The translations under genes and the position numbers were made by a program. A stretch of DNA of 60,873 nucleotides, filler included. It is 12 parts of 12 records of this genome, joined end to end, with 100 filler letters (N's around TTAATTAATTAA, not from the genome) between each part and the next. Parts side by side here need not be neighbours in the genome. Positions count along the whole stretch, not along the records: positions 8,935 to 12,448 come from SRR15195285_3916; 11 more parts are not named here. One strand, written 5' to 3'. A model generated the notes under the pieces. The model was given only the letters and a program-made list of their open reading frames with translations, was not told the origin of the DNA and made no database searches. This document shows positions 5,845-57,055 of the stretch, in pieces (the stretch's first letter is position 1; each line of letters begins with the position of its first letter).

Positions 5845-7515
5845 TCAACCAGTGTCACCTTGCGCAAGTGGAGCGATCTCTGTGGGCTCCCCCGGGCATG
5901 CTATAGCTGGTGCCACTTGCGTTCGTTTCGGCTGCTTTTGCGTGCGGCTTTTTGCTCGCCCATACGCTTGCAACACTTGCTTGTTTGATATCGGCACCAC
6001 TGGAACGCCCAGACCTGTACCACAGGCACACACACAACATCAAACTGCGCTGTCTGCCTCGCGCAAAACCAAGCACCCACCGCAACCTCTCTACTGGAGC
6101 GTGAGCGCACCATTGGCCATAAGAACCTGCATGTTGTCGGCGAACACACGAGCATCTATTTGCTCTTTAGGCGTTGGATAGTGCACTGCAAGCTCCTTTA
6201 CGTCCATAACATTATACCAGCTCGTCATGAGCTCTAACACACTTGACATCATTGAGCCGGTGAAGTGAGGACTCCGTGATTTCCACCGGTATGTTATGAG
6301 GACAGGCTGAACCGGCAACCCGGCCACGAAGGCTCCAGTCCTACGAGATGCAATTATGCACTGAACACTTTAGCTAGACGAGCGCGCAGTCGCCATAGAC
6401 AAGATCGGGATAGGCTGGTCGCACCGAAACTGCAGGAGCTGTCGGCCGTTGGTTGTTGTTCCTTCTGGGAAGACCAGCAACCGCCGCAAATGATGCCCCT
6501 GCTCCAATGCAGCTGCCTGTTGATATTGCACAACGAGTTCCGTCGCGCCCGTACCAGTGCGTGCGCCGACCTTTCTGTGTCTATGAAGGAACAACACTCC
6601 GAACGCGTTCGCGATGACCCAAAAGCATGGGATCAGCTTGAAAAAGTCGGAAGCGACAGCTGTAGCTGGATACCGCCAGGCTATATAAAGGACGTCGGCG
6701 ACAGAGGAGTGATTTGCGATGATGGTGGAGCCATGCGCGGCGGCAACCGCATCTATACGCTGTCGATTCGCCGAAGAGTGCGTTTCTTCACCTCGAAAAT
6801 GACGCTGCGGCGTTGAGGTCGACGCGCCTGGACGAAACTTGCTTCCTGAGCGGCTTGCCACTGCCGTAGCTATGGCGGCTGCTCCAGCAGCAGCGGATTG
6901 CGCCTTGCGCGATGGACGACACTGCCAGCAACGCCTTCGCAGCCGGGATGTGTGGAAATCGTTCTCGACGCGGCGTTCGCGAATGTAGATGAACCCCAGC
7001 GAAAACAATGCCAGCCGTGCCAGTGGTGCCTGCAGCCTTATCACCGTGCGCTGCAGGCAGTTTTTCGGCTTTGCCGATAGCGACGAAGATGACGTACACC
7101 GGCACGACAAACAACCGATCAGCAGCACCACCACTGCTACGAGCGTCATCAGCCCAAATGCCACAACTATGATTGCCAGCCGGATCGGGAAGATGGTCAG
7201 CACTGCCAGAGTAAGCTTTGTGAGCGCCCAGCCTCGCCTCCATCCCGTGAACGTCGGCTTGTGTGGATTCAGGGTCTCCATCGCCTTTGCTTCCTCTTGC
7301 TCAGCTCGTTGCTCTCGCGCAGCTTCCAGCGCCATGTCAAGCTCCGGTCGCGCGGGAACGAGCTCGCTATTATCGCGTAGAGGAGCGTGCTCAGGCCGGC
7401 CGGTGCTGGGCGCCACCTGCTGGTTTGCATTCGCTGCTGCAGCGAATGCCTCCGCCCGGATCCTCGCCTCCTCCGACAGCTGCTGGTCGACGAACATCGC
7501 TGCGCCGCCGGCCAC
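5845..7515 (-). CDS. Lysophospholipid acyltransferase (LPCAT/LPEAT, PlsC family), 3 exons
   Basis: NHSSVAD (HxxxxD), FPEGTTTNG and an N-terminal TM segment. Introns 6341-6424 and 6015-6110 (GT-AG) give QFRTGAFVAGLPVQPV and LMANGLGVPV, typical of the LPCAT C-terminus. Confidence 0.88.
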
Positions 7516-8096
7516 TGCCGCACACCTGCTACCTGGGACGGAGCCAGCTGTCCATTGTCGGAGTCAGTCTTAACGGCTACGATCCTGCTCCTGGCATCTT
7601 CAACGCCGGCGGCACGGGCCACGGCGGCGGTTGCTCGCGAGCACCCCAGACACAATGTGATTTAAGGTGACATGTGTGATCTGCGGTGTGCGGAGCTACC
7701 GGTACATACCGGTACGGGTGTAAGGCGGTTGGTCGGGAGGAAGGCGCAACATGGAATCGCGGGATGATGAGGAGGAGATGATGGGTGGTGCGGTTTGCCT
7801 TCACGCCGTCGCTCCTTTCGTGCTCGTCCGCCGTGAATATTTGCACCAACACTACATCGGACTGGCGTCTTGCAGGCCAAAATGGCTGTCTGCGGCAAGT
7901 CGTGTTTTGGTTATGTCGTGCTCATGAATTGCGGCGCCTTGCAAACCGCACTCATCTCACGTTACGACTGTTATCACGGACGCATTCGGCTCTTACACTG
8001 AGCTCGCAGACGGTAGTTCCAATACTGCGCAGACAAGCAATTGAGGCAAGAAGAAATTAAACGATCGCTTATTATAACAGAACACAGGGCGGAGCA

Positions 8097-8834: not shown

Positions 8835-8934
8835 NNNNNNNNNNNNNNNNNNNNNNNNNNNNNNNNNNNNNNNNNNNNTTAATTAATTAANNNNNNNNNN
8901 NNNNNNNNNNNNNNNNNNNNNNNNNNNNNNNNNN
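8835..8934. other. Artificial contig spacer (44 N + TTAATTAATTAA + 44 N). Identical spacers at 12449, 18592, 22720, 28239, 31953, 36461, 40409, 50602, 54305 and 57742
   Basis: The same 100-bp structure occurs 11 times; the 12-mer places stop codons in all six frames. Confidence 0.98.
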
Positions 8935-9293
8935 TGAACCCTCAACAGTCACAGTCACAGTCACGCAACTTCCAACTCACCAGCATGATCGGGGGCGTGA
9001 TGTTGAATCAATGGCATGCGCGGCGCGCGTGCGTATCCGGTACCTGCGAGCGCGCGCGCGATACGTCTACTATGAATAGAGTCGCGCGCGGGCATGGCCA
9101 TGCACGCGCAGACGCCGGCGCTAGCGGATCGGAGCAGCTCGTACCGGTACCTCATCGCACGCGCCCGCCCGCCCAGGCGCGTAATCGCGCGGCGGTGCCA
9201 TACCCGGCGCCGGAGCGCCGGCACACGTACAGCTGTAGCTAGACGTACACAGCACCGTGGTCCACGAGCGCCGGCGGTATAGGCGGCAGCAAG

Positions 9294-11372
9294 ATGCCGA
9301 GCGAAGAGAGCATCGAGTCTTCTCAGGCTGGCGCTCCTGAGGCAGCAGGGCATGTAGAGCCACAGTTGCCATGCCAGGTAGCTGGCTGGCCTGTCCACGC
9401 CGTCGCCTCGGCGGCTGAGCTCAAAGCAGTGTGCCATCTCCGCTTCGAGGTCTACGTTGGGGAGCTCAAACGGGACAACTACTCCTACGTGAGTTAAGCT
9501 CAGGCCTGCACTCAACACCGATAGGCAGAATAGCCATGAGCGTGGGTAACAAAACATGGATGGAGCTCGTCGAAGTTGATGAGAATGCACTGGGAAACCG
9601 AAGCTCCCTGGTGCCACATTGTCATTCGGTCGAACGGTCGGCCGCACGAACAAGTGCCTGCAGAGCGCCGCTCACGTGAGGGTTTGTGCACGCAGGTTGA
9701 CCCAGTGGAACAGCTGCTGGAAGATCCTCTGGACCACAGCGACTCGTGCATCAACCTTTTCCACTCGACGGCTGACGACGGCCTCACGGAGGTTGAGCAA
9801 GAGATCGGTTACGTGAAGCCATTGCCTGGCCAACGCGTCGTTTCCGGCGCCCGTGTGCACGTCCCTTGTGAGTTGCGATGGGGCGACTCCGACCTGACCA
9901 CTCGTTGTCAATCGCTAACGAAGCTGCGTGCACGCCTATTGCTATAGGTCCCGATAAATATGCAGAGATGTTTGGCACGAAAGACCCCTCGGTGTTTGGT
10001 GAGGAGCTTGTGTCCGACCAGAGCAACTTTGCGTTTTTCTCACGCTTCATGGTCGCGAGTCCGTTCCGACGAGTCCGCACCGACGGTTTCGGGCTGGCGG
10101 ATGCGCTCTACGCAAGTGCCTTTGCTGCAGTGCGCGCGCGGGGGGCAAAGATTCTGCTGCTGAACTGCACTCCGGCCTTATCACCATACTACGAGCGTTT
10201 CGGTTTTGTGCGCTACAAACCAGCGTATTGCGACGATGGGATGGGCTTGCAGATCCCTCTCGCGATGGCACTCGAAGACGTGAATTTCCTGCAACGAGTG
10301 GCACCGAAAAGCCCGCTAACGCTGACGGCGCTATCCTTGGGCCACATGAGCGGTGCAACCGAAGGGACACCTGAGACGCAGCCGGAACCAGAGGGTATTG
10401 AGGCGGCTGAGGTTGCAGACGCACCGGCTTTGTCTTGCCGTTGGCTGGCGCAGGTCCAGTCTCGTCGTGCACCTCCACTTGTCAACTTTCAAACAATCGA
10501 CGGGGTCGAAGGGATGCGTAGGTTTCTGAACGATGAAGGTCAAGTTCCTGACATGGGGGAGTTTTCCATCTTCGCAGGTATTGCGCCTGATGAACGTGCC
10601 ACGTACTTCGGGAAGGTACCAAGTGCTCTGTGTGTCATTGATATCCCAGCTGGGGCGCAGCTCACGCGCGAAGGAGACGTGCGTGATGAAGCATACCTGC
10701 TTCTAAGTGGTACAATGGAGAATACCGAGCACCCAGAGGAAGTTCTTGAGCCTGGAGTCGTGGTGGGAGAAGTCTCGTTTCTTTCGGTACGTATACATGG
10801 CTTCTCTGCTGTATGGCGGCTGTTTGAGGTAGTGTCTAAGAGACAATTTGACCAGAGTTTCCTCTGTGTCCGGCAGGGCACACAGCGCATATCGACTACG
10901 ATCTGTAAAACTCATTGCTTGGTGATGGTCGTCTCGCGCATTGGCTTCATGAAGTCCATGAAGGTCGTCCCGGAGATCTCTGTGAAGCTGCTGTGGAATC
11001 TAGGTGTGCCATGAACCCTTCGTCGTTGCTGTCTCGTTCAGAGTTCTAAGGTGCTCTTGTGCGCATATCATAGGAACAGGTCTGTCGAGACGCTTTATGC
11101 AGCAGACGGCACAGCTGAAAAAGACTGCGCATTTGCTACAGACCACACTTGCAGCTGAAGCAGACGATACTGATGGTGGTGCAACCAAGCGGGCGCTTAG
11201 CGAAGCGGCAACGCAGCTGGAGACGACAGCGCAGCTCGACACCAAAGGTGCACCACCAACGACGCCGAACGATCCCACGGCAAAATGGCGGAAGGTGCAG
11301 GCTGCAGGATTTGCAGCGATCCGGCGTGTGAACTCTGCCCCAACGGCTGGGACAGGAGTCACTGAGTCATGA
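9294..11372 (+). CDS. N-acyl amino acid synthase-like (FeeM/NasP-type) GNAT + cyclic-nucleotide-binding domain protein, 5 exons, ~543 aa
   Basis: Exons 9294-9488, 9696-9867, 9948-10786, 10877-11003 and 11074-11372 splice in frame (1632 nt). GNAT motifs ELKAVCHLRFEVYVGEL, LEDPLD, FSRFMVASPFR, LLNCTPALSPYYERFGFVRY, GLQIPLAMALEDVNFL. cNMP motifs LTREGDVRDEAYLLLSG, PGVVVGEVSFLSGTQRISTTIC, KLLWNLGTGLSRRF. Confidence 0.8.
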
Positions 11373-11428
11373 CAATACATATTGGATCATAATGTGTGCC
11401 AGCAAGTAAATCCGCGGCTACCACACAA

Positions 11429-12448
11429 TTACCCTGTCTTACCAAGTGCCCCCATCAACCTACGCTCTTGTTCTGATATTTCCAGCATGGCCGCGTCCGC
11501 TTCTGACATCGACAATGACGATGACGATGTCGATGACGGCGATGGCGACAGCAACGATGGCATTGGTTGCGAAGTTCTGCCCGCAACCAATCGCCGTGGT
11601 CTTCGAAGCACCCAGCTGACAGATCTACGACCACGCAGACCTTGCATGCGCTGGACCGCTGCGGCTTCTAGTCCTTTCGCTCTTTTCGAGTTGCTGCCAA
11701 TCGGTGCACCATCTACTGCAATCACCTCGTCTCCAGGCCTAATCCCCACAGCGCTGGCATTATGATTGAGTGGAGCTGTCACCACCGCAATCAGACCACC
11801 GCGCACACCATACGCAAGCCGCGGCGTATCACAGCCGCGAAGAGTGACAGCGTAACGCCCTGCAAATGGTTCGTCGGCATTGGTTACGTTCTCGTCGTCT
11901 CTTTCCAGTAGTTTCTCCTGCTGTCTCTGCTCGCGTCGTGCTTGTTTCTCCTCTTCCTTCTCGCGAGCTTTGCACGCTTTGAGGTCCTGTTCACAGCCAT
12001 GATGAAAAACGAAAGAAGGTTGATGCATACTTTTTCAGACCAACTGTATCAGACAAAGTAAGAAGTCTACCGGTTCACGACAGCTAACAGCAAGTCGCCC
12101 ACCAATCTCAGTCTGTGGTTCAAATCACACCTGATGGAATGCTTCGCGCTGCTTGTTCCGCACTCTGTCCTCTGCTCGGAGCCGGTGTGCTGACAATTCT
12201 GAAAGAGTTACGGTTCCACTGCAATCGACATCCACCTCGTCAAACATCTGGCGCAGCAGCTCGCGATCCAGTTCGTCCTCACAGTCTTCGCCCCCTTCCT
12301 CGACAGCTGCCAGCTGAGCCACCTCCACGTACTCCTCTGTCAGTATCGCGTACACCGTTTTGCATATCAGTTTCTGACCTTCCTCAGATTTACTGGCTGG
12401 AAACACGTATACTGTTCGATACGCACCGAAGGTTAGCTCCTCTTCGTC
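11429..12448 (-). CDS. EF-hand + PDZ-like protein, partial, spliced
   Basis: EF-hand LLRQMFDEVDVDCSGTVTLSEL (~12200-12260) and PDZ-like ASAVGIRPGDEVIAVDG in the last exon; exon joins not resolved. Confidence 0.55.
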
Positions 12449-12548
12449 NNNNNNNNNNNNNNNNNNNNNNNNNNNNNNNNNNNNNNNNNNNNTTAATTAA
12501 TTAANNNNNNNNNNNNNNNNNNNNNNNNNNNNNNNNNNNNNNNNNNNN

Positions 12549-36560: not shown

Positions 36561-39500
36561 GTGAGGGTGAGGGTGAGGGTGAGGGTGAGGCCCCCTGGCC
36601 TGTTCGTGAGCGCTTTCTCGTCGAGGAGGCCTCAGAGGGGCGCCATGTGAGCCGGGCGCAAAGCCTGGCTTTGCTGCTTTCTGGTGCGAGAGGCAGGCGC
36701 CTGCTGCTACGAGAGGCGAGAGGAGAGGAGGGTAGCATCGATAGTAGGGTCCCTTGGGGGACTGAAGAGGCAGGGCGGGGCGTCCGACGGCTGCTGAAGG
36801 CTGCGGCGGCGGATACGCATCGCTGTGCTGCACTAGAGCGACTGCTCCGGCGTGCACGCGCTGGTAGGAGTGCTGCTATGGTGGAGGGAGGGCTGAGCCG
36901 AGCGATGCGAGCGAAGGTTGCACAGGGTGAGACGCAAGAACAGCTTTTCCCGCAGCGCAGCAGCAGCTCAGCCTCTTGACCTGTGCGCGCGCGCTGCATG
37001 TGCTCCGGTCCCTCTACATAGGTAGCTCAGCCTCCGCTGGATCTCCAGTGGTATCTCTGGCCCCTCTGGCATCAGCCGTTGCGCAGTCGTCTGAGCACGG
37101 AGAATTGTTCTTGTCAGCACAGTGCCTCATACAGCGTGCGGTTGGGCTCGGGCAGGTCTGAGGGAGCTGAAGGCGCTGGGCTGCGCGTGGCCTTTCCTGG
37201 ACCCCGTTCCGGTGGATCAGGTACCAGGCTACGCGGAGGCGATCGCGGTGCCGATGGACCTGCCCGAGGTGACTGCTCTGCTCAAGCCCAGTGGGCCTCG
37301 CCAGTCGCCTAACAGCCGTCGCTGCTGTGCACTGAGGAGCTAGCTGTAGGCGATCGGCTGCGCTGATTCGCCGGGGTTCTCATGATCGTGTCACTCATCT
37401 TGTTGTAATCTGAGCGAGAGCCTTGTGCTGGCTCGGCGCAGGTACAGCGCAAGCTGGACAGCGACGCCTACGCGACAGTCGACGCCTTCGCCGCAGACCT
37501 CGAGCTCATCTCTGCCAACTGCCTGCGCTTCAACAGCGGCGTGGAAGATGCGGAGGACTTCGTAGAGTGCGCGCACGCTTTCCGAAAGCACGTGTCTATA
37601 CAGCTTGCCATCATTAGGGGCGAGAAGCCGGAGCTGGAGCTTGCGGTGACAGCAGTCCCGCCGAAGGCCACGGCTATGATAAAGAAAGTTGCGCTAGTTG
37701 TCGCTCACGAGGCCGCTCGCGACAGGCTTTCACTCCAGCAGCCGGGCCCGAAGAGGCGCGGCAGACCGCCGAAGGCCGAGACTGTCCTGTTGAAAGCGCG
37801 GATGAACGCAGCTGTTGCTGCTGTTTTGGACTGCCGCGACGGCAGGCGGAAGCGGGCTAGCATGTTTCTGGAGCTTCCGGAGCGGGAGATCAACCCCGAG
37901 TACTACGCGATGATCACGACCCCAATCGATCTCAACACTATCCGAGCGAAGGTTGCAGACGGGAGGTACAAGCGCTGGGCTGCATTTGAGGCCGATATGA
38001 TGACGCTCTTCGCCAACGCAAAGCTGTTCAATGACCCCCGATCAGTGATTTTTAGCGACGCGGAAGTCATGCAACATCTGTTTGAACAGCTGCCAGAGGT
38101 GCCGCTGCAGCTTCCCAAGGCGTACGAAACTGCCAGACACAGCGGGGCAGGCAGCGAGTCAGATTCGGATTCAGACTCAGAACAAGTTTCCGAGGCGAGC
38201 TCCGACGACCCTTTCGAACACCTCGTAAGATCGCAGACGAAGCGAAAACGCAGTAAGCAGAAACGAGGGCACAAGCCAAAACAGCGACAGAAGAAAAAGC
38301 GGAAGGTATCTAGAGGAGCTCATAAGGTCAAGGGTAAGTCTGCGTGCGGACGCAAAGTTCTGGACGACGCCGTTGACTCTGGACTCTCCGAGGCATCTGA
38401 AGACGAATCAGATGAAGAAACTGTGGCCGCATTGAAGCAGAAGCTGAGTGGTACAGCCGAAGTGATCGCCCAACTGAGGGTTGGGCAACAAGTCAACGTG
38501 TCCGATACAGGCGTGCATGCAGCCCAGGTTCTCGCTCTAGATGAAGAGGGAATGCGTGTGAAGGTGCATTTCAGCGGCTGGAACTCACGGTTTGACAATT
38601 GGTATCCGGCCAACAGGGCGATCATCAAGGTGCCAAAGACAGGGGAGGAGTACTCTGCCGCTTACACCGGTAGGGGCGGCAGAGGAAGAGGAAGAGGAAG
38701 AGGAAGAGGCAGAGGAAGAAGCAGAGGCAGCCCAGCGCTGACCTCGCCAGCAGCAGTTGGAGGCAGCGCCGATGGAGAGCCAGAGAACTTGCAAGGTGAC
38801 CAACGGGCCAAGCGGGCCCGCGTACAGCCGGACAGACTGGTACCATCAATGGCAAAAGCTTCGCTGTCAGAAACAAAAGAGCGTCCAGCTGAACAAGAAG
38901 AAGAGACTGCTGCCGGATTTAGTGAGGTCACTGTCCATCGACTGTCAGTTGGGCTTGACGCATTGCGTCCGCGCGTTCTCAAAATGCCCGGGATGTGGCT
39001 CTCTTTGCACGTTGCTGGGGGTACCGATACCGACAAACCTGCTCTCATGGCCTTCAAAGACGTTGTCAACGACCAGTTGCCTCATCTCAGAGCTGGCAGC
39101 CATCTCCACTACCTGATCTTCTCCAAGCATACGTCGACATTGTTGCTTACGGAGGGCGAAGGGAAAGACGCGGTTGTGGCGGGCGGTGGCACTTTTCGCA
39201 TGCTGCGATCCAAGGAAGGTACGATGGCAATTGAGGTGCTCGTCCTCGCTGTAAGCGCGAGCGCACAGGGGCAAGGCCATGGTACCCGCATTGTCAATGG
39301 CATGAAAGCGCTGGCATTAGCCGAGGCTGACCGTTCCACGCCCGCCAAAAGTCTGTCAACTCGTGGCCGAGGCGCTTGCGGCTGTCTGATGGTAACGCAG
39401 GCAGATGCTGGAGCATCAACTGTACGCTTTTGGCGTCGGCAGCGCTTGGAGACTGGTGCTAAGGCTGACCAAGTAGTGATACAGTCGCAGCACTGTGGGA

Positions 39501-40408
39501 AGCACGGCGGGACCTTCGTGGTGTACGAGAACACAGTTAATATGGTGGTGGTGCTCGACTTAGAGAGTGTGTACGTGCGGCCAAAGTGGAAAAAATGGAC
39601 CAGTGGTGCTACCGCAGCTGATGATGCCGCAACTGTGATGCCTTCGACTAAAGGGGAAGCGTCGAGCCAGAGTTTGGTCACAAAAGCTGAGGCACATGCA
39701 GACCTCAGCGCTACAAGGCCACTGTCTGCTGCGACTGAGGTTTCGAGGGTCGCATCAGGCGGTGAACCTCGTACTTGTGATACGGACTCACAAGCAGACG
39801 TCGAGAGAGAGCACTCGCTAGGACCCATAGCCTCATGCAGGAAGGAACCACCACGATCACTGTTACCAACGGCAAGTGCTGCAATATTGCAAGAGCCAAC
39901 ATACGCCGAAGTGGTAGCAGCTGAGAGTGGATCGCCATCACTGTCCCTGGGATCGGCCACGATGTGCTCGTCTGAAGGTCACACCGTACCTGCTGCACTG
40001 GCACCTGCACCTGCTGCGTCTGCATCTGCACCTGCTTTGCTGGTGCCAGCATCTGCTGCACCAGCTGCCCCGACACCTGCTGAGCTAGCGCTGGAACCTG
40101 CTGTATCGGCACCAGCACTTGATGTATCGGGACTGGCACCTGCTGCACCGGCGCTGGCGTCTGCTGCCACGACCTCACAGGCAGTTGCGCCGACACAAAC
40201 AGAGGCAGTGGCAGAAGCAGAGGCAGCAGAAGCAGAAGCACCAGCAGAAGCAGCAGCAGAAGGTCGAACAGGTAAGGAAGAGAGCACCGGTGAAAACAAA
40301 ACACAAACTGCAGCCAAAGCAGACGCCGATGATAATGTCGTTACCCTACCCACTGATGACACGAAGGCGGTGCATCCAGGACTGCACGTCGTGCACCAAC
40401 CAGCGGAA
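36561..40408 (+). CDS. Two bromodomains + AT-hook + Tudor-knot/chromo-barrel + GCN5-type acetyltransferase; truncated
   Basis: Bromo1 AWPFLDPVPVDQVPGYAEAIAVPMDLPE|VQRKL...ANCLRFN; AT-hook KRRGRPPK; bromo2 MFLELP...PEYYAMITTPIDL...NAKLFN; AQVL...VKVHFSGWNSRFDNW; GNAT QLPHL...GGGTFR...IEVLVLAVSASAQGQGHGTRIV...TQAD...FWRRQ. 5' exon(s) before 37156 uncertain. Confidence 0.82.
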
Positions 40409-40699
40409 NNNNNNNNNNNNNNNNNNNNNNNNNNNNNNNNNNNNNNNNNNNNTTAATTAATTAANNNNNNNNNNNNNNNNNNNNNNNNNNNNNNNNNNNN
40501 NNNNNNNNCTCACGCGCACCATTTTTTTGGCACTGGTACACACGGGCGGGGAGGGATCCCATTGTGAGAACGCGCCTGCGAAGTGCTACTAGTAGCAGGC
40601 GATCTTGCTAGCAACAGGAGCAGTGCCGCGTGCAGAACTCAACGCGGTCGCAAGGAAAGCCACAAACTTGAAACGATCGGCTCCTGTGTGGACTCAGCG

Positions 40700-54446: not shown

Positions 54447-54686
54447 CTGATATTAGGGTGGTTCTGGGGTGCCCCGCCTGTGGATAGAATCCTGAGCCGA
54501 CGATGGTGGTGATGATGGTGGTGGTGATGGGCGCGATGATGGTGGTGACGATGGGCGGCTTCGAGGGTTAGCTCTTCTTGTTCCTGATATTAGGAGGGTT
54601 CTGGGGCCCCCGCCTGTGGATTGAATCCTGAGCCGACGATGGTGGCGATGATGATGGGGAGCTTTTAGGGTTAGCTCTTCTTGTTC
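54447..54686. repeat. Two imperfect tandem copies (~137 and ~103 bp) with a variable GGT/GAT triplet core
   Basis: CTGATATTAGG...CCCCGCCTGTGGAT.GAATCCTGAGCCGACGATGGTGG...AGGGTTAGCTCTTCTTGTTC starts at both 54447 and 54584. Confidence 0.85.
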
Positions 54687-54769
54687 TTCCTGGTTCCCTT
54701 GGGCGAGGAGGGGCTTCCTCCAAAGAGGCTGAGGGATGGGCTGAGGGGCTGAGGGGCCCCGGGGAGGGG

Positions 54770-57055
54770 ATGGAGCAGAAGGAGCTGGTGACGGCGGTCT
54801 TGTTGGCCGGGGGCGCGCTGCTCTGCAGGGAATGCGCTTTCTTTCGCCAAGGAGGCGGAGACGCTAGCGGCTATACAGCGGCAGGGCAGCAGCCGCAGCC
54901 GCCGCCGCCGCAGGGGCAGCAGCGGCAAGGGGTCACTGCAGTGCCGGGTCGGAACGCGAAGAAGAACCGGGCGAAGAAGGAGCGGAAGAAGCTGAAGAGG
55001 GGGTCGTCGTCCAAGTCTTTTGTGTTGCCGGAGGGCGGTCCGGTGCGATGCTCGGGCCGAACACACGCTCGGCATTTCACAGTCGCTGACGGTCACCGTG
55101 TGGATTTGGCTCGTGTGTTGCAGGGAGGAGAGGGGTCGCCGCGCAAAGGGGTGGTGCGCCAGTCGAGCGGGGACTTCGAGCGGGCGCTGGAGGACAAGCT
55201 GGTCAGCATCCGGCGGAGGCGAAGAGACGCCCAGATCAGCGTGCTGCAGGCCGAGCTGGAGACGCTGAAGATGAGTGCGCTGAAGCGGCGCGCTCGCGAG
55301 GTCGGGGTCGAGGCCCAGGCGCTGGAGGACGCGGAGGATAGCGACACTCCGAAGCCGGACATCATTGCGCTCGTCATCGCGGCGTCGCCGGTCAGCTCCG
55401 GCAGTGACTCGTCAGGGCGCGCCGCTCTGTCCAGCGAGCGTGGGCGGCAGCCTGGCGAAGACGCGCGGACACCGTCGTCCTCACGCAAGGGGACACCAGG
55501 ACCAGACGCGCCGCCCAGACCGGGCTCAAGCAGCTCGTCCAGCGAGCTGGGCGTGCGCCATGGCTCGGGACCGCTTACCCCCGCGTTCTCGCGCCAGGTG
55601 TCATCGGGATCAGACAGGCCAGACGGCAAACTGGCAGTTGGTAGCCTGGTACGCGTCCTGAAGGCAGGGCCTATGCTCGGTAAGTGTGCAACAGTCATCG
55701 CACACGAGGGCTACGACGAGCAGTTCGATGCGGACGCGGACCCGGCGGAACACGCCAATCTTGACCTCTTGGTGGAGAAAGGGAAGCGCGTGAGGGTCGA
55801 AATCGAGCTGACGGGTGAAATTGAGACCTTCCCGCTGTCGCAAATCGAGCCGCTCGATAATGCCCCAAATATCCAGGCAGAGGTGGAGGTGGAGGTTGCG
55901 CTGAAGCTCGCCGGTGCAGAGAAGCTGCACCGTGTGCTTGGGCTCACGCCACTGCAGCGCACAGCGACTCAGCAGACGGCGGAGGACAAGTACAGGCAGG
56001 CTTTCCGAGGATTTAGGCGTGCGTCAGACATCGAGAGCGTTGACGAAATCGAGGTCACGGCGGTTCTTAGCCGAGGTACGAGTGGTACCGTCTCTGCGGC
56101 AAGGTGGCGTGGAATGGACGTGGCTGTAAAACAGTTTCACTACTTTGAGAATAAGGAGGAGGAATCTGAGGCCATCAGGCAGAATTTCGAGAACGAAGTC
56201 TTCTTGATGCGGGAATTGCATCATGCTAATTTGGTTCGGTTCTTCGCAGCGCAGTCCAAGCCGCCGAATCTTTGCATCGTAATGGAGCGAATGGCTGGGT
56301 CACTGACAGACCTACTCTATGGGCGATTGCGGCAGGGAGCGGATAAGACGCTGATCGCCCCGCGGCTCGTAGCGATTGCGTGCGGCATTGTTAGCGGGAT
56401 GGCTTTCCTGCATGCACACAACGTGTGCCACCGCGACCTCAAATCCGCCAATGTGCTGTTCGACAAGCAGCTCCGAATCAAGCTCTGCGACTTCGCTTTC
56501 TCGAAGTTCAAGCCGAGTGACGACAACGCCTCGATGCAGCTGCAAACCCAAATTGGCACGGCCGCCTGGATGGCCCCAGAAGTATTGCGAGGCGACGACT
56601 ACTCCCTGAAGTGTGATAGCTACTCATTTGGAGTGATCATCTGGGAGTTGATTGTGCGCAAGCAGCCATTCCGCGAGCTCAACCACTTTCAGCTGCTCAA
56701 CCACGTCGGGCTGCAAGGCAAAACGCTGCAGATGCCAGACGATGCTGCGCCGCTTTGGCGCGCTGTGGCGAGCGCTTGCTGGGAGTCACAACCTCAGCTC
56801 CGCCCAAGCTTCGCGCAGCTCGATACGGTATTTCGTTCCGCCGCAGCGGACCTGCGGGACGGCCGGGCCAAGATGCACGCAGGAGATAGATCTACTGGAG
56901 CGCCCATCGAAGGGTCTGGGGCATTGCTGGATGATGGCGCGGGAATGGCAGCGTGGCGCGATGTCTTGAGCGCACTGCATGAACGGGTACACGAGCAAGA
57001 TGCAGAAGAAACCGAGCGCTCTGTCGATGTTGCTCCCGCTGCTGCGCTTCCTTGA
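54770..57055 (+). CDS. Tyrosine-kinase-like (TKL, MLK/Raf-like) protein kinase, intronless, 761 aa
   Basis: SRGTSGTV, WRGMDVAVK, FENEV, HRDLKSANVL, CDFAFSK, GTAAWMAPE, DSYSFGVIIWE, RPSF. Confidence 0.92.
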   Translation: MEQKELVTAVLLAGGALLCRECAFFRQGGGDASGYTAAGQQPQPPPPQGQQRQGVTAVPGRNAKKNRAKKERKKLKRGSSSKSFVLPEGGPVRCSGRTHARHFTVADGHRVDLARVLQGGEGSPRKGVVRQSSGDFERALEDKLVSIRRRRRDAQISVLQAELETLKMSALKRRAREVGVEAQALEDAEDSDTPKPDIIALVIAASPVSSGSDSSGRAALSSERGRQPGEDARTPSSSRKGTPGPDAPPRPGSSSSSSELGVRHGSGPLTPAFSRQVSSGSDRPDGKLAVGSLVRVLKAGPMLGKCATVIAHEGYDEQFDADADPAEHANLDLLVEKGKRVRVEIELTGEIETFPLSQIEPLDNAPNIQAEVEVEVALKLAGAEKLHRVLGLTPLQRTATQQTAEDKYRQAFRGFRRASDIESVDEIEVTAVLSRGTSGTVSAARWRGMDVAVKQFHYFENKEEESEAIRQNFENEVFLMRELHHANLVRFFAAQSKPPNLCIVMERMAGSLTDLLYGRLRQGADKTLIAPRLVAIACGIVSGMAFLHAHNVCHRDLKSANVLFDKQLRIKLCDFAFSKFKPSDDNASMQLQTQIGTAAWMAPEVLRGDDYSLKCDSYSFGVIIWELIVRKQPFRELNHFQLLNHVGLQGKTLQMPDDAAPLWRAVASACWESQPQLRPSFAQLDTVFRSAAADLRDGRAKMHAGDRSTGAPIEGSGALLDDGAGMAAWRDVLSALHERVHEQDAEETERSVDVAPAAALP

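Follow-up and report, generated by a model that had tools for sequence, protein, structure and literature searches.

Acyl donors differ among the described FeeM- and LuxI-type enzymes, FeeM using acyl-ACP and BjaI, RpaI and MesI using acyl-CoA. Control of a GNAT by a cyclic-nucleotide-binding (cNMP) domain within one polypeptide is found in mycobacterial Pat, a cAMP-regulated protein lysine acetyltransferase in which the cNMP domain acts allosterically. A synthase of N-acyl amino acids (NAS) from environmental DNA with an associated cyclic-nucleotide-binding domain, NasP, is reported to have been described by Clardy and Brady in 2007 (J Bacteriol 189:6487). To our knowledge, neither FeeM-type NAS enzymes nor their direct control by cAMP, represented by NasP, have been described outside bacteria and environmental DNA. 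NAS enzymes ligate amino acids with acyl-ACP, according to a passage of PMC12479983, and passages of two other sources describe NasP as a metagenome-derived NAS activated by cAMP (PMC4897644) and as acylating phenylalanine (PMC5643525).

We have analysed a locus that appears to place the same two domains in a eukaryotic gene. The window, that is the whole stretch of 60,873 nt, is made of 12 short contigs joined by N44-TTAATTAATTAA-N44 spacers, and the gene lies on the contig at 8935-12448. The reading that we favour, with a probability of roughly 0.6, is that of an intact and spliced marine-protist gene for an enzyme with a FeeM-branch GNAT and a cNMP domain, acquired once from bacteria and provided with introns later, that would synthesize N-acyl amides when activated by a cyclic nucleotide. 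The initial annotation knew of no described eukaryotic example of such an enzyme, and none was found in our literature searches either.

Gene model and eukaryotic relatives

The five predicted exons, all on the plus strand, add up to 1632 nt and encode 543 aa followed by a TGA stop, with each of the four introns bounded by GT..AG (Table 1). This model rests on comparison with homologues, which are continuous, residue for residue in the alignment, over the four junctions (NYSY|VDP, VHVP|xP.KY, GE..FLS|G..R and LLWNL|xTGLS), and the donors are precisely where the sequences of close relatives begin to differ or run into a stop. The five-exon, four-intron structure first proposed from the sequence alone is therefore borne out by the homologues that span every junction, and the motifs quoted at that time (LRFEVYVGEL, LEDPLD, FSRFMV, NCTPALSPYYERFGFVRY, GLQIPLAMALEDVNFLQRVAPKSPL and GEVSFLS|GTQR) are all present in the translations. 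An in-frame stop at 9240-9242 lies 5' of the ATG, and exon 1 matches the homologues in the alignment up to ...NYSY. If retained, introns 1, 2 and 4 would introduce 4, 1 and 1 stops, respectively, and/or a frame shift.

Table 1 Predicted features of the gene, in positions of the window
Feature	Position	Strand	Description
Exon 1	9294..9488	+	aa 1-65; ATG at 9294; N-terminal extension and first GNAT motif LRFEVYVGELKRDNYSY
Intron 1	9489..9695	+	207 nt, GTGAGT...CAG, phase 0; read-through gives 4 stops
Exon 2	9696..9867	+	aa 66-122 and base 1 of codon 123; VDPVEQLLEDPLDH...GARVHVP
Intron 2	9868..9947	+	80 nt, GTGAGT...TAG, phase 1
Exon 3	9948..10786	+	aa 123-402; GNAT core, helical linker, first two thirds of cNMP domain to GEVSFLS
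Phosphate-binding cassette	10766..10897	+	GEVSFLS|GTQRIST; Gly396, Glu397, Arg406 (10886-10888); interrupted by intron 3
Intron 3	10787..10876	+	90 nt, GTACGT...CAG, phase 0, in frame, no stop; splits phosphate-binding cassette
Exon 4	10877..11003	+	aa 403-444 and base 1 of codon 445; GTQR, last strands, C-helix start, ...VKLLWNL
Intron 4	11004..11073	+	70 nt, GTGTGC...TAG, phase 1
Exon 5	11074..11372	+	aa 445-543 and TGA; end of cNMP C-helix (TGLSRRF) and low-complexity, helix-prone tail of ~90 aa

Intron 2 contains the GCTAAC site that had been pointed out near 9914, located at 9914-9919 with CTAAC 29 nt 5' of the 3' splice site, and its position is also interrupted in the relatives P0004/P0005 (read-through) and L005 (acceptor). 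For intron 4 the acceptor was set at 11073 and not at 11079, which by eye preserves the NL-xxx-LS spacing of the homologues. Intron 3 keeps the frame and contains no stop in the window. The 30 residues that it encodes are absent from the homologues in the alignment, and the three relatives P0002, P0003 and P0004/P0005, which are ORF read-throughs of 75-90% identity, diverge right after GEVSFLS and then run into stops. The claim that the cassette is restored only by removing this intron thus held, and a coding role for it was ruled out by the stops that the relatives carry there. An additional GTGAGT..CAG intron, missing from the window gene, is present in the relative L005 (82% aa identity). 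Over 112 codons of exon 3, the comparison with L005 gave a pN of 0.118 and a pS of 0.740; judged by these values the gene is under purifying selection. No paralogue was found elsewhere within the window, whose other contigs encode bromodomain, PHD, HMG, DDT, Myb, C-type lectin, kinase, C2 and PDZ proteins, in keeping with a eukaryotic setting.

This gene is not an isolated case. Its orthologues were found in a diatom transcriptome, that of Corethron pennatum (P0023, EP00588, from MMETSP0169), and in several lineages of marine metagenomes, and an ORF in a EukProt record reads by eye the same as the window ORF 9872-11014. In the phylogeny that the initial annotation had proposed as a check, the 12 eukaryote-type rows came out as monophyletic among the bacterial sequences, with an SH-aLRT of 100. 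Bacterial contamination of the assembly was ruled out by this clade together with the introns. The stem of the eukaryotic clade is very long, 1.44-1.56 changes per site, and substrate or regulation may have changed along it. The window protein retains 42 of the 56 positions that are at least 70% conserved in bacteria, among them R50, E57, D75, D78, R118, R155, C196, P198, Y204, E205, G208, D233, G396, E397 and R406.

The nearest Atlas clusters are FeeM+cNMP proteins, 93-100% of them from Bacteria, and relatives were found in 35 loci of named bacterial genomes of many phyla. These loci were searched with the single protein P0111, a procedure that reaches only those bacteria with which it has peptide words in common, and the tree of named bacteria is therefore a biased sample. 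We infer that the gene was transferred from bacteria to eukaryotes; no donor lineage was resolved in the trees. A cyanobacterial (plastid) origin was considered and rejected, as the Synechococcus sequences do not branch as sisters of the eukaryotes in the tree, where support for the sister node is 30. No conserved neighbour was shared among the bacterial loci in the 30 of 61 flanking ORFs, from 10 loci, that were scanned. These bacterial flanks contained a single class III cyclase (L007) and a single methyltransferase (L010).

The acyltransferase half

The core motifs of the GNAT in exon 3, FAFFSRFMV, LLLNCTPALSPYYERFGFVRY and GLQIPLAMALED, were located by Pfam, alignment and conserved positions. 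Exon 3 alone scores under the Pfam cut-offs, with Acetyltransf_10 (22.9 bits) above FeeM (15 bits, a score obtained without exons 1 and 2), and the family link therefore rests on profiles and folds. The cut-off of 27 bits for Pfam FeeM (PF21926, the domain of N-acyl amino acid synthases) was reached by no scanned protein of the eukaryotic clade, the best being P0012 with 22.4 bits, and generic GNAT models of Pfam score at least as high as FeeM on these proteins. At the profile level, the eukaryotic clade aligned to the bacterial family of ~380 aa with an hhalign probability of 100 and an E of 6.5e-63 over 366 columns that include both domains and the linker. Of 87 sampled members of this bacterial family, 60 match FeeM PF21926 and 84 cNMP_binding at E<=1e-5, and Acetyltransf_5 matches 39; their FeeM scores reach, for example, 48 bits (P0033) and 46.5 bits (P0050), so the profile-level homology is to proteins that pass the FeeM threshold.

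Sequence searches of the PDB missed FeeM, and a structure search was needed to reach it. With the profile of the eukaryotic clade, the best 60 of 100 matches at E<=1 were all cNMP proteins, and the first 200 residues of the bacterial P0033 gave six matches, all with E>=0.4 and FeeM not among them. An AlphaFold model of the GNAT part was available for the clade member P0230, a homologue of the window protein (pLDDT 86.6). Among the 13 Foldseek rows listed up to rank 14 for this model, 11 were AHL synthases or FeeM, and TofI, LasI, BjaI, FeeM 2g0b, MesI and RpaI all appear within these 14 ranks. FeeM 2g0b was found at ranks 8-10 with a TM of 0.70-0.71 and, for chains C and D, an rmsd of 4.0-4.2. 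The first eukaryotic N-terminal acetyltransferase, Naa60, did not appear until rank 37, the margin in E being small (2e-7 vs 4e-5). The N-terminal half, as modelled for P0230, is therefore closest in fold to AHL synthases and FeeM and not to a generic acetyltransferase; together with the profile alignment, this upholds the assignment to a FeeM/NAS-type GNAT made at the start. The likeness to LuxI-type AHL synthases is one of fold only. No match to an autoinducer-synthase family of Pfam was listed at E<=0.1 to 1 for the window gene or, at E<=0.1, for 17 proteins of the eukaryotic clade, and BjaI was met only at an E of about 1 in a phmmer search with the GNAT half of a bacterial relative.

The same fold and the same regulation might serve another chemistry, the protein being an OlsB-like aminolipid (ornithine- or lysine-lipid) N-acyltransferase, an AHL-type synthase or an acyltransferase of amines other than amino acids, in which case the product would be a membrane lipid or another signal. 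We regard this as unlikely. It would fit the weak NCBIfam matches to the OlsB L-ornithine N-alpha-acyltransferase (E 6e-5, P0012) and to the exosortase-associated acyltransferase TIGR03694 (E 9.4e-6, P0013), but both are far under their cut-offs (22.9 vs 350 bits and 25.2 vs 111.95 bits). The AHL synthases TofI, LasI and BjaI do rank slightly above FeeM in Foldseek, against which stands the lack of Pfam autoinducer-synthase matches described above. Furthermore, the substrate could have changed along the eukaryotic clade's long stem, and in many members a hydrophobic N-terminal anchor followed by an Arg-rich stretch, seen by eye, suggests an action at the membrane. On the other side, among proteins reported with this pair of domains NasP alone has been studied biochemically, and it yields N-acyl phenylalanine, according to a passage of PMC5643525.

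The cyclic-nucleotide-binding half and the integrity of the locus

We found in the C-terminal half both the cNMP_binding fold (PF00027) and the G-E-x5-8-R cassette. The single-sequence Pfam score of the window protein, 19-24 bits, is under the cut-off of 27.5 because the introns split the domain; other members of the clade are above it, namely P0013 (37 bits), P0023 (49) and P0021 (59.6). The profile of the clade matched the cNMP domains of PKG, PKA and MloK1 in the PDB at E 1.4e-11 to 1e-7. A two-domain AlphaFold model (pLDDT 87.3, pTM 0.88) retrieved with Foldseek many cNMP domains at probability 1.00, together with the AHL synthases BjaI, RpaI and TofI. By model and profile, the C-terminal half is a cyclic-nucleotide-binding fold. 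An NAS-type GNAT and a cNMP domain are thus found in one polypeptide of the window gene, for which all four splices are required.

The domain could have kept this fold without being a sensor of cAMP or cGMP, serving as a structural or dimerisation module or binding a different ligand, as does the PKA regulatory subunit of trypanosomes, which is independent of cAMP. Activity would in that case be constitutive or under some other control. The rank-2 structural match of the two-domain model is precisely that subunit, from Trypanosoma brucei, and many clade members share with the window protein a single-sequence score under the Pfam cut-off. In addition, the residue after the cassette Arg, usually Ser, Thr or Ala, is Ile in the window protein and I, V, A or T across the clade. 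Against this, Gly396, Glu397 and Arg406 are each found in 11 of 11 rows of the eukaryotic clade (the corresponding fractions in 84 bacterial rows being 0.98, 0.94 and 0.87), the three members named above clear the cut-off, and the profile reaches the cNMP domains of PKG and PKA with E values of 1e-11 to 1e-8. A domain of this kind that does not sense cyclic nucleotides seems improbable to us.

Of 23 sequencing runs listed, 19 contained part of the stretch and six of those were RNA. Four runs were compared with the window, all as Logan contigs: X9, X15 and X18 (RNA) and X1 (DNA). The initial annotation had looked to RNA for confirmation of the four introns, a support that these contigs did not provide, as no splice joint was found in any of the four runs and no contig bridged a spliced junction. 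The RNA-labelled run X9 has contigs that read through introns 1, 2 and 4 in unspliced form, at a depth of 3-6, and these could be carried-over DNA or pre-mRNA. The contigs of X15 and X18 lie within exons 3 and 5 only, too little to count as support. A contig of 182 nt from a polyA RNA run is identical to the window at 11136-11317, in exon 5. In a DNA-run contig there is a 6-nt deletion at 9498, in intron 1, and all the remaining indels of that contig are 5' of the ATG.

A locus that does not work, whether as a recent transfer, a decaying copy or a gene with retained introns that gives only fragments such as the 380-codon ORF 9872-11014, would agree with the unspliced contigs of X9, the missing joints and the public protein calls P0001 and P0162, which are unspliced ORF read-throughs, but it is very improbable, since the five exons are all open and colinear with full-length homologues, every exon keeps family-invariant residues, pN is far below pS against L005, introns diverge among relatives while exons are kept, an orthologue is present in the polyA-based transcriptome of C. 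pennatum, and the read-through ORF would miss 122 residues at the start of the GNAT fold and have 30 additional ones within the cassette.

Proposed mechanism and comparison with known systems

What we infer for activity, substrate, ligand and activation of the intact, spliced enzyme is the following. An N-terminal GNAT of the FeeM/AHL-synthase branch, a branch of long-chain N-acyl transferases, would be followed by a helical linker, a C-terminal cNMP domain and a low-complexity tail. Binding of cAMP or cGMP to the Gly-Glu...Arg cassette would move the C-helix and the linker and relieve the inhibition of the acyltransferase, which would then take the fatty acyl group of a thioester, either acyl-CoA or acyl-ACP, and attach it to the amino group of an amino acid or a related amine, the product being an N-acyl amide lipid. 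No signal for targeting to a compartment with acyl-ACP was evident by eye in the window protein. The eukaryotic clade, with the diatom and several marine lineages, would go back to one bacterial FeeM+cNMP gene, of the architecture that NasP is reported to have, which was acquired once and gained introns afterwards.

More tentatively, diatoms and other marine protists might possess in this protein a synthase, gated by cyclic nucleotides and in many cases anchored in the membrane, that makes infochemicals of the N-acyl amino acid (lipoamino acid) type. Taken over from bacteria a single time, it would be a eukaryotic counterpart of bacterial NAS/AHL-type signalling and couple the sensing of light, CO2, nutrients or grazers through cAMP or cGMP directly to the release of lipid amides acting on bacteria, prey or conspecifics in the plankton. 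Our results show a monophyletic set of eukaryotic genes, including the intron-bearing marine-protist gene and the C. pennatum transcript, that keep the two-domain architecture and its invariant residues under apparent purifying selection. If the proposed function is correct, lipid-amide signals or antibiotics would be added to the chemical ecology of protists, and the enzyme would be one of the rare eukaryotic metabolic enzymes gated directly by a cyclic nucleotide. It would also be a clear example of a gene that was acquired from bacteria and then gained introns, which differ between close relatives.

Among the known systems, Pat has its cNMP domain at the N-terminus, the opposite order to that of the window protein. 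The NCBIfam model of Pat (NF058543) matches the bacterial relatives in their cNMP part alone (profile positions 2-116 of 317), with 26-36 bits vs a cut-off of 460, and the GNAT belongs, by its modelled fold, to the FeeM/AHL-synthase branch and not to that of protein acetyltransferases.

The GNAT fold of the clade is common to FeeM (2g0b, a single-domain N-acyl tyrosine synthase), LasI (1ro5), TofI (3p2h) and BjaI (5w8a). Foldseek comparisons with FeeM and the AHL synthases gave E 2e-7 to 1.7e-6 and target-normalised TM of 0.58-0.71 over 214-228 columns, at a sequence identity of only 7-16% to FeeM and LuxI-type synthases and with no significant match at the sequence level. The motifs LRFEVYV, DPLD and FSRF are, by eye, what we take to be the equivalents of the LuxI/FeeM-type motifs R..VF near the N-terminus, D..D and SRF. 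FeeM and the AHL synthases differ from the window protein in lacking a regulatory domain.

A further known system is the bacterial FeeM+cNMP_binding family of ~370-400 aa (its members include P0033, P0037, P0111 from a Polyangiaceae MAG, L010 from a marine Synechococcus and L024 from Dongia deserti), which is homologous from end to end, linker included, and has the same order of domains. Its members are 20-25% identical to the window protein and their genes are intron-free, and some are fused to, or adjoin, a methyltransferase. Compared with the forms of ~380 aa, the window protein is ~160 aa longer through its N-terminal extension and C-terminal tail, and the eukaryotic clade has motifs of its own (YVGELKRxNYSY, FAFFSRFMV and LLLNCTPAL), additional insertions within its GNAT, tails and, in many of its proteins, the N-terminal membrane anchor.

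None of the matches in our homologue searches was named NasP, which is compared here by its description in passages of the literature. On that description, NasP and the window protein each carry an NAS-type GNAT and a cNMP-binding domain on a single polypeptide; the window protein differs in being eukaryotic, in the four introns of its gene and in its long branch. The logic expected to be shared by both is that the second messenger acts directly on the enzyme and not through a transcription factor.

Gene model and evidence on splicing

The exons proposed in the initial annotation were joined by script after reading of the region and gave a 1632-nt coding sequence of 543 codons plus a TGA, reproducing the predicted five-exon, four-intron gene. 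The introns (207, 80, 90 and 70 nt, in order) all run from GT to AG, with donors GTGAGT, GTGAGT, GTACGT and GTGTGC, and a GCTAAC (9914-9919) lies 29 nt upstream of the intron 2 acceptor; the GTGAGT donors and the GCTAAC had been annotated and are present in the sequence, as are all the quoted peptide motifs in the exon translations. Read-through meets four stops in intron 1 and one each in introns 2 and 4, and introns 2 and 4 would also shift the frame. Intron 3 is open and in frame. The proposal that its excision restores the phosphate-binding cassette holds, since G396 and E397 close exon 3 and R406 is in exon 4, so that the cassette exists only with this intron removed.

A search with the long ORF of the window retrieved 17 proteins. 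Full-length homologues P0006/P0163 and P0008-P0013 (497-612 aa) are continuous across all four junctions, and in the alignment with them the translations of the five exons meet exactly, to the residue. The close relatives P0002, P0003, P0004 and P0005 (75-90% identical) are ORFs called unspliced that match the window through GEVSFLS and then immediately diverge and run into stops, and therefore the open 90-nt segment is non-coding; in P0004 and P0005 the called ORF also continues through intron 2, which has diverged. On the metagenome contig L005, which is 82% identical across 112 codons, an acceptor occurs at the intron 2 position and there is an additional GTGAGT..CAG intron absent from the window. 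L004 is likewise interrupted and three metagenome loci (L001-L003) are uninterrupted. Extra introns were seen within the LED.V.FL motif region of L005 (517-710) and after FRRVR in P0005 (residues ~60-82), where the window has none, which shows that introns were recently gained or lost within the eukaryotic clade.

Of 23 runs listed, four were checked, all as contigs: three labelled as RNA and one as DNA. No spliced joint was found across them. Contigs of run X9 (depth 3-6) pass unspliced through introns 1, 2 and 4 (9238-9532, 9541-9782, 9792-10206 and 10931-11361), and the joins were thus not borne out by RNA. X15 and X18 (polyA) gave window-identical contigs inside exons 3 and 5 only. The X9 contigs may represent DNA carry-over or pre-mRNA, which look alike in contig data, and the RNA contigs count weakly against splicing. 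On comparative evidence rather than RNA, the introns appear to be real.

The window of 60,873 bases consists of 12 contigs of 3-10 kb concatenated by N44-TTAATTAATTAA-N44 spacers, and therefore gene neighbourhood across spacers is meaningless; the contig of this gene is 3.5 kb long (8935-12448). Other contigs encode eukaryote-typical proteins, C2 and PDZ among them. From their long uninterrupted ORFs the source genome appears intron-poor, and the four introns stand out. The convergent neighbour ORF had a PDZ-like stretch by eye and no Pfam matches at E<=1e-3. A GAT/GAC-rich stretch had very high depth in all runs compared (up to 1362), probably by repeat cross-mapping.

Features of the window, with positions along the whole stretch
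Feature	Position	Strand	Remark
Exon 1	9294-9488	+	scripted join
Exon 2	9696-9867	+	scripted join
Exon 3	9948-10786	+	scripted join
Exon 4	10877-11003	+	scripted join
Exon 5	11074-11372	+	scripted join
Convergent ORF, 201 aa	11429-12448	-	towards contig end region
GAT/GAC-rich stretch	11500-11560
Spacers	8835-8934, 12449-12548		and nine further places
PlsC-type acyltransferase	6370-7563	-	long uninterrupted ORF
Chromatin protein, bromodomain/PHD/HMG/DDT/Myb, 1600 aa	23420-28294	+	long uninterrupted ORF
Double-bromodomain protein	37409-40456	+	long uninterrupted ORF
C-type lectin and beta-helix protein, 2450 aa	41636-48988	+	long uninterrupted ORF
Tyrosine-kinase-like kinase	54632-57055	+	long uninterrupted ORF

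Family assignment and predicted structure

Exon 3 alone stayed below every Pfam cut-off (Acetyltransf_10, 22.9 bits against 23.6; cNMP_binding, 19-24 against 27.5; FeeM, 15 against 27), and none of the eukaryote-clade proteins scanned with Pfam passed the FeeM cut-off. An exhaustive HMMER search (E<=1e-3) gave 256 proteins, of which roughly two dozen are of eukaryote type, followed by many of 370-400 aa matched in two stretches, with FeeM (PF21926) N-terminal and cNMP_binding C-terminal. In the aligned family of these shorter proteins, Pfam matches at E<=1e-5 were found for cNMP_binding in 84 of 87, FeeM in 60 and Acetyltransf_5 in 39. Profile-profile comparison joined the eukaryotic clade to this family with probability 100 (E 6.5e-63) over 366 columns, spanning both domains and the linker. 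PDB sequence searches matched only the cNMP half (PKG, E 1.4e-11) and did not reach FeeM.

This family is bacterial. A scan seeded with its member P0111, from a Polyangiaceae MAG, gave 35 loci in named genomes, including Cyanobacteriota (marine Synechococcus), Pseudomonadota (among them the isolate Dongia deserti), Actinomycetota, Rhodothermota, Bacillota, Acidobacteriota, Spirochaetota and others; the nearest Atlas clusters, a lead only, are FeeM+cNMP and 93-100% Bacteria. Some of the bacterial FeeM+cNMP proteins (P0038 and P0135) carry a fused C-terminal SAM methyltransferase, and the gene immediately downstream in marine Synechococcus encodes a methyltransferase (L010:6131-6985 (+)). At one of ten loci examined, L007 from a Leptospiraceae MAG, the FeeM+cNMP gene has next to it a gene for a class III adenylate/guanylate cyclase (L007:1000-2538 (-)).

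An AlphaFold model was built from a 105-row alignment for P0163, the nearest full-length homologue whose N-terminus is complete. It is confident as a two-domain unit (pLDDT 87.3, pTM 0.88) and matched in the PDB cNMP domains of ion channels, PKA/PKG and CRP and also the AHL synthases BjaI, RpaI and TofI. For P0230, a GNAT-only clade member (pLDDT 86.6), the first 14 PDB ranks were TofI, LasI, BjaI, FeeM (2g0b, ranks 8-10, TM 0.70-0.71), MesI and RpaI, with one small bacterial GNAT as the only other protein; eukaryotic Naa60 first appeared at rank 37, by a modest E-value margin (2e-7 against 4e-5). The annotated closeness of the GNAT half to NAS/FeeM over ordinary eukaryotic acetyltransferases thus stands at the profile and fold level and is equivocal in single-sequence Pfam scans.

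Conservation within the bacterial family reaches at least 70% at 56 positions, and the window protein shares the residue at 42 of them, including R50, E57, D75, D78, R118, R155, R163, C196, P198, Y204, E205, G208, G222, P226 and D233 in the GNAT half and G365, G377, G392, G396, E397 and R406 in the cNMP half. Against L005, pS was 0.740 (near saturation) while pN was low, at 0.118 (112 codons).

Carriers and origin

A EukProt protein is identical by eye to the window ORF 9872-11014, and the clade member P0023 comes from the diatom transcriptome of Corethron pennatum (EP00588, MMETSP0169). The contigs bearing members of other clusters reach 358 kb. The G+C content of related metagenome loci spans 46% to 68%, and the gene is therefore present in several marine lineages. 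The contig of the intronless orthologue P0011 (68% G+C) begins, some 0.5 kb upstream of that gene, within an ORF (L003:2-583 (+)) that is arylamine N-acetyltransferase-like by eye.

One tree combined 95 bacterial-type rows with 12 of eukaryote type, the window among them, and left out fragments <340 aa, proteins >450 aa and most of the redundant eukaryote fragments. The eukaryote-type rows formed one clade (SH-aLRT 100) whose stem measures 1.44 changes per site, nested by midpoint rooting among bacterial-type rows (supports 87-89). With 23 named bacterial sequences, after dropping four loci with internal stops, the clade was again a single branch (support 100, stem 1.56), with a poorly supported sister (support 30) that is not cyanobacterial. 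Both trees are unrooted, and we infer transfer from bacteria to a eukaryote because the gene is spread over many bacterial phyla but confined to a single tight clade among the eukaryotic sequences; the lineage-specific introns point the same way. The horizontal acquisition put forward in the annotation agrees with this. Contig L026 bears the label of an Akkermansia muciniphila MAG; its FeeM+cNMP gene groups with Dongiaceae/Rhodospirillaceae sequences (SH-aLRT 100), which may reflect a binning error or transfer.

Putative function

NAS enzymes are described as ligating amino acids with acyl-ACP (PMC12479983), and NasP as acylating phenylalanine (PMC5643525) and being activated by cAMP (PMC4897644). 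By homology, cAMP or cGMP would bind the C-terminal domain of the window protein and relieve inhibition of the FeeM-type acyltransferase, which would then form an N-acyl amide. Such an allosteric unit would fit the confident inter-domain packing of the P0163 model (pTM 0.88). Acyl-CoA, instead of acyl-ACP, may serve as the acyl donor: no targeting signal is obvious in the window protein, and some members of this fold are CoA-dependent (BjaI, RpaI and MesI, from structure descriptions). In many clade members, but not in the window protein, an Arg-rich stretch comes by eye after an N-terminal hydrophobic helix, and the C-terminal tails are long and helix-prone, which suggests membrane tethering of these members.

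In the parts of the literature covered by our search we found no description of a eukaryotic FeeM-type NAS or of the FeeM+cNMP pair in eukaryotes, as the annotation had it. Its observation is confirmed, and its interpretation has support as regards architecture, homology and a single origin of bacterial type. The window gene is thus a eukaryotic form of an architecture already known in bacteria.
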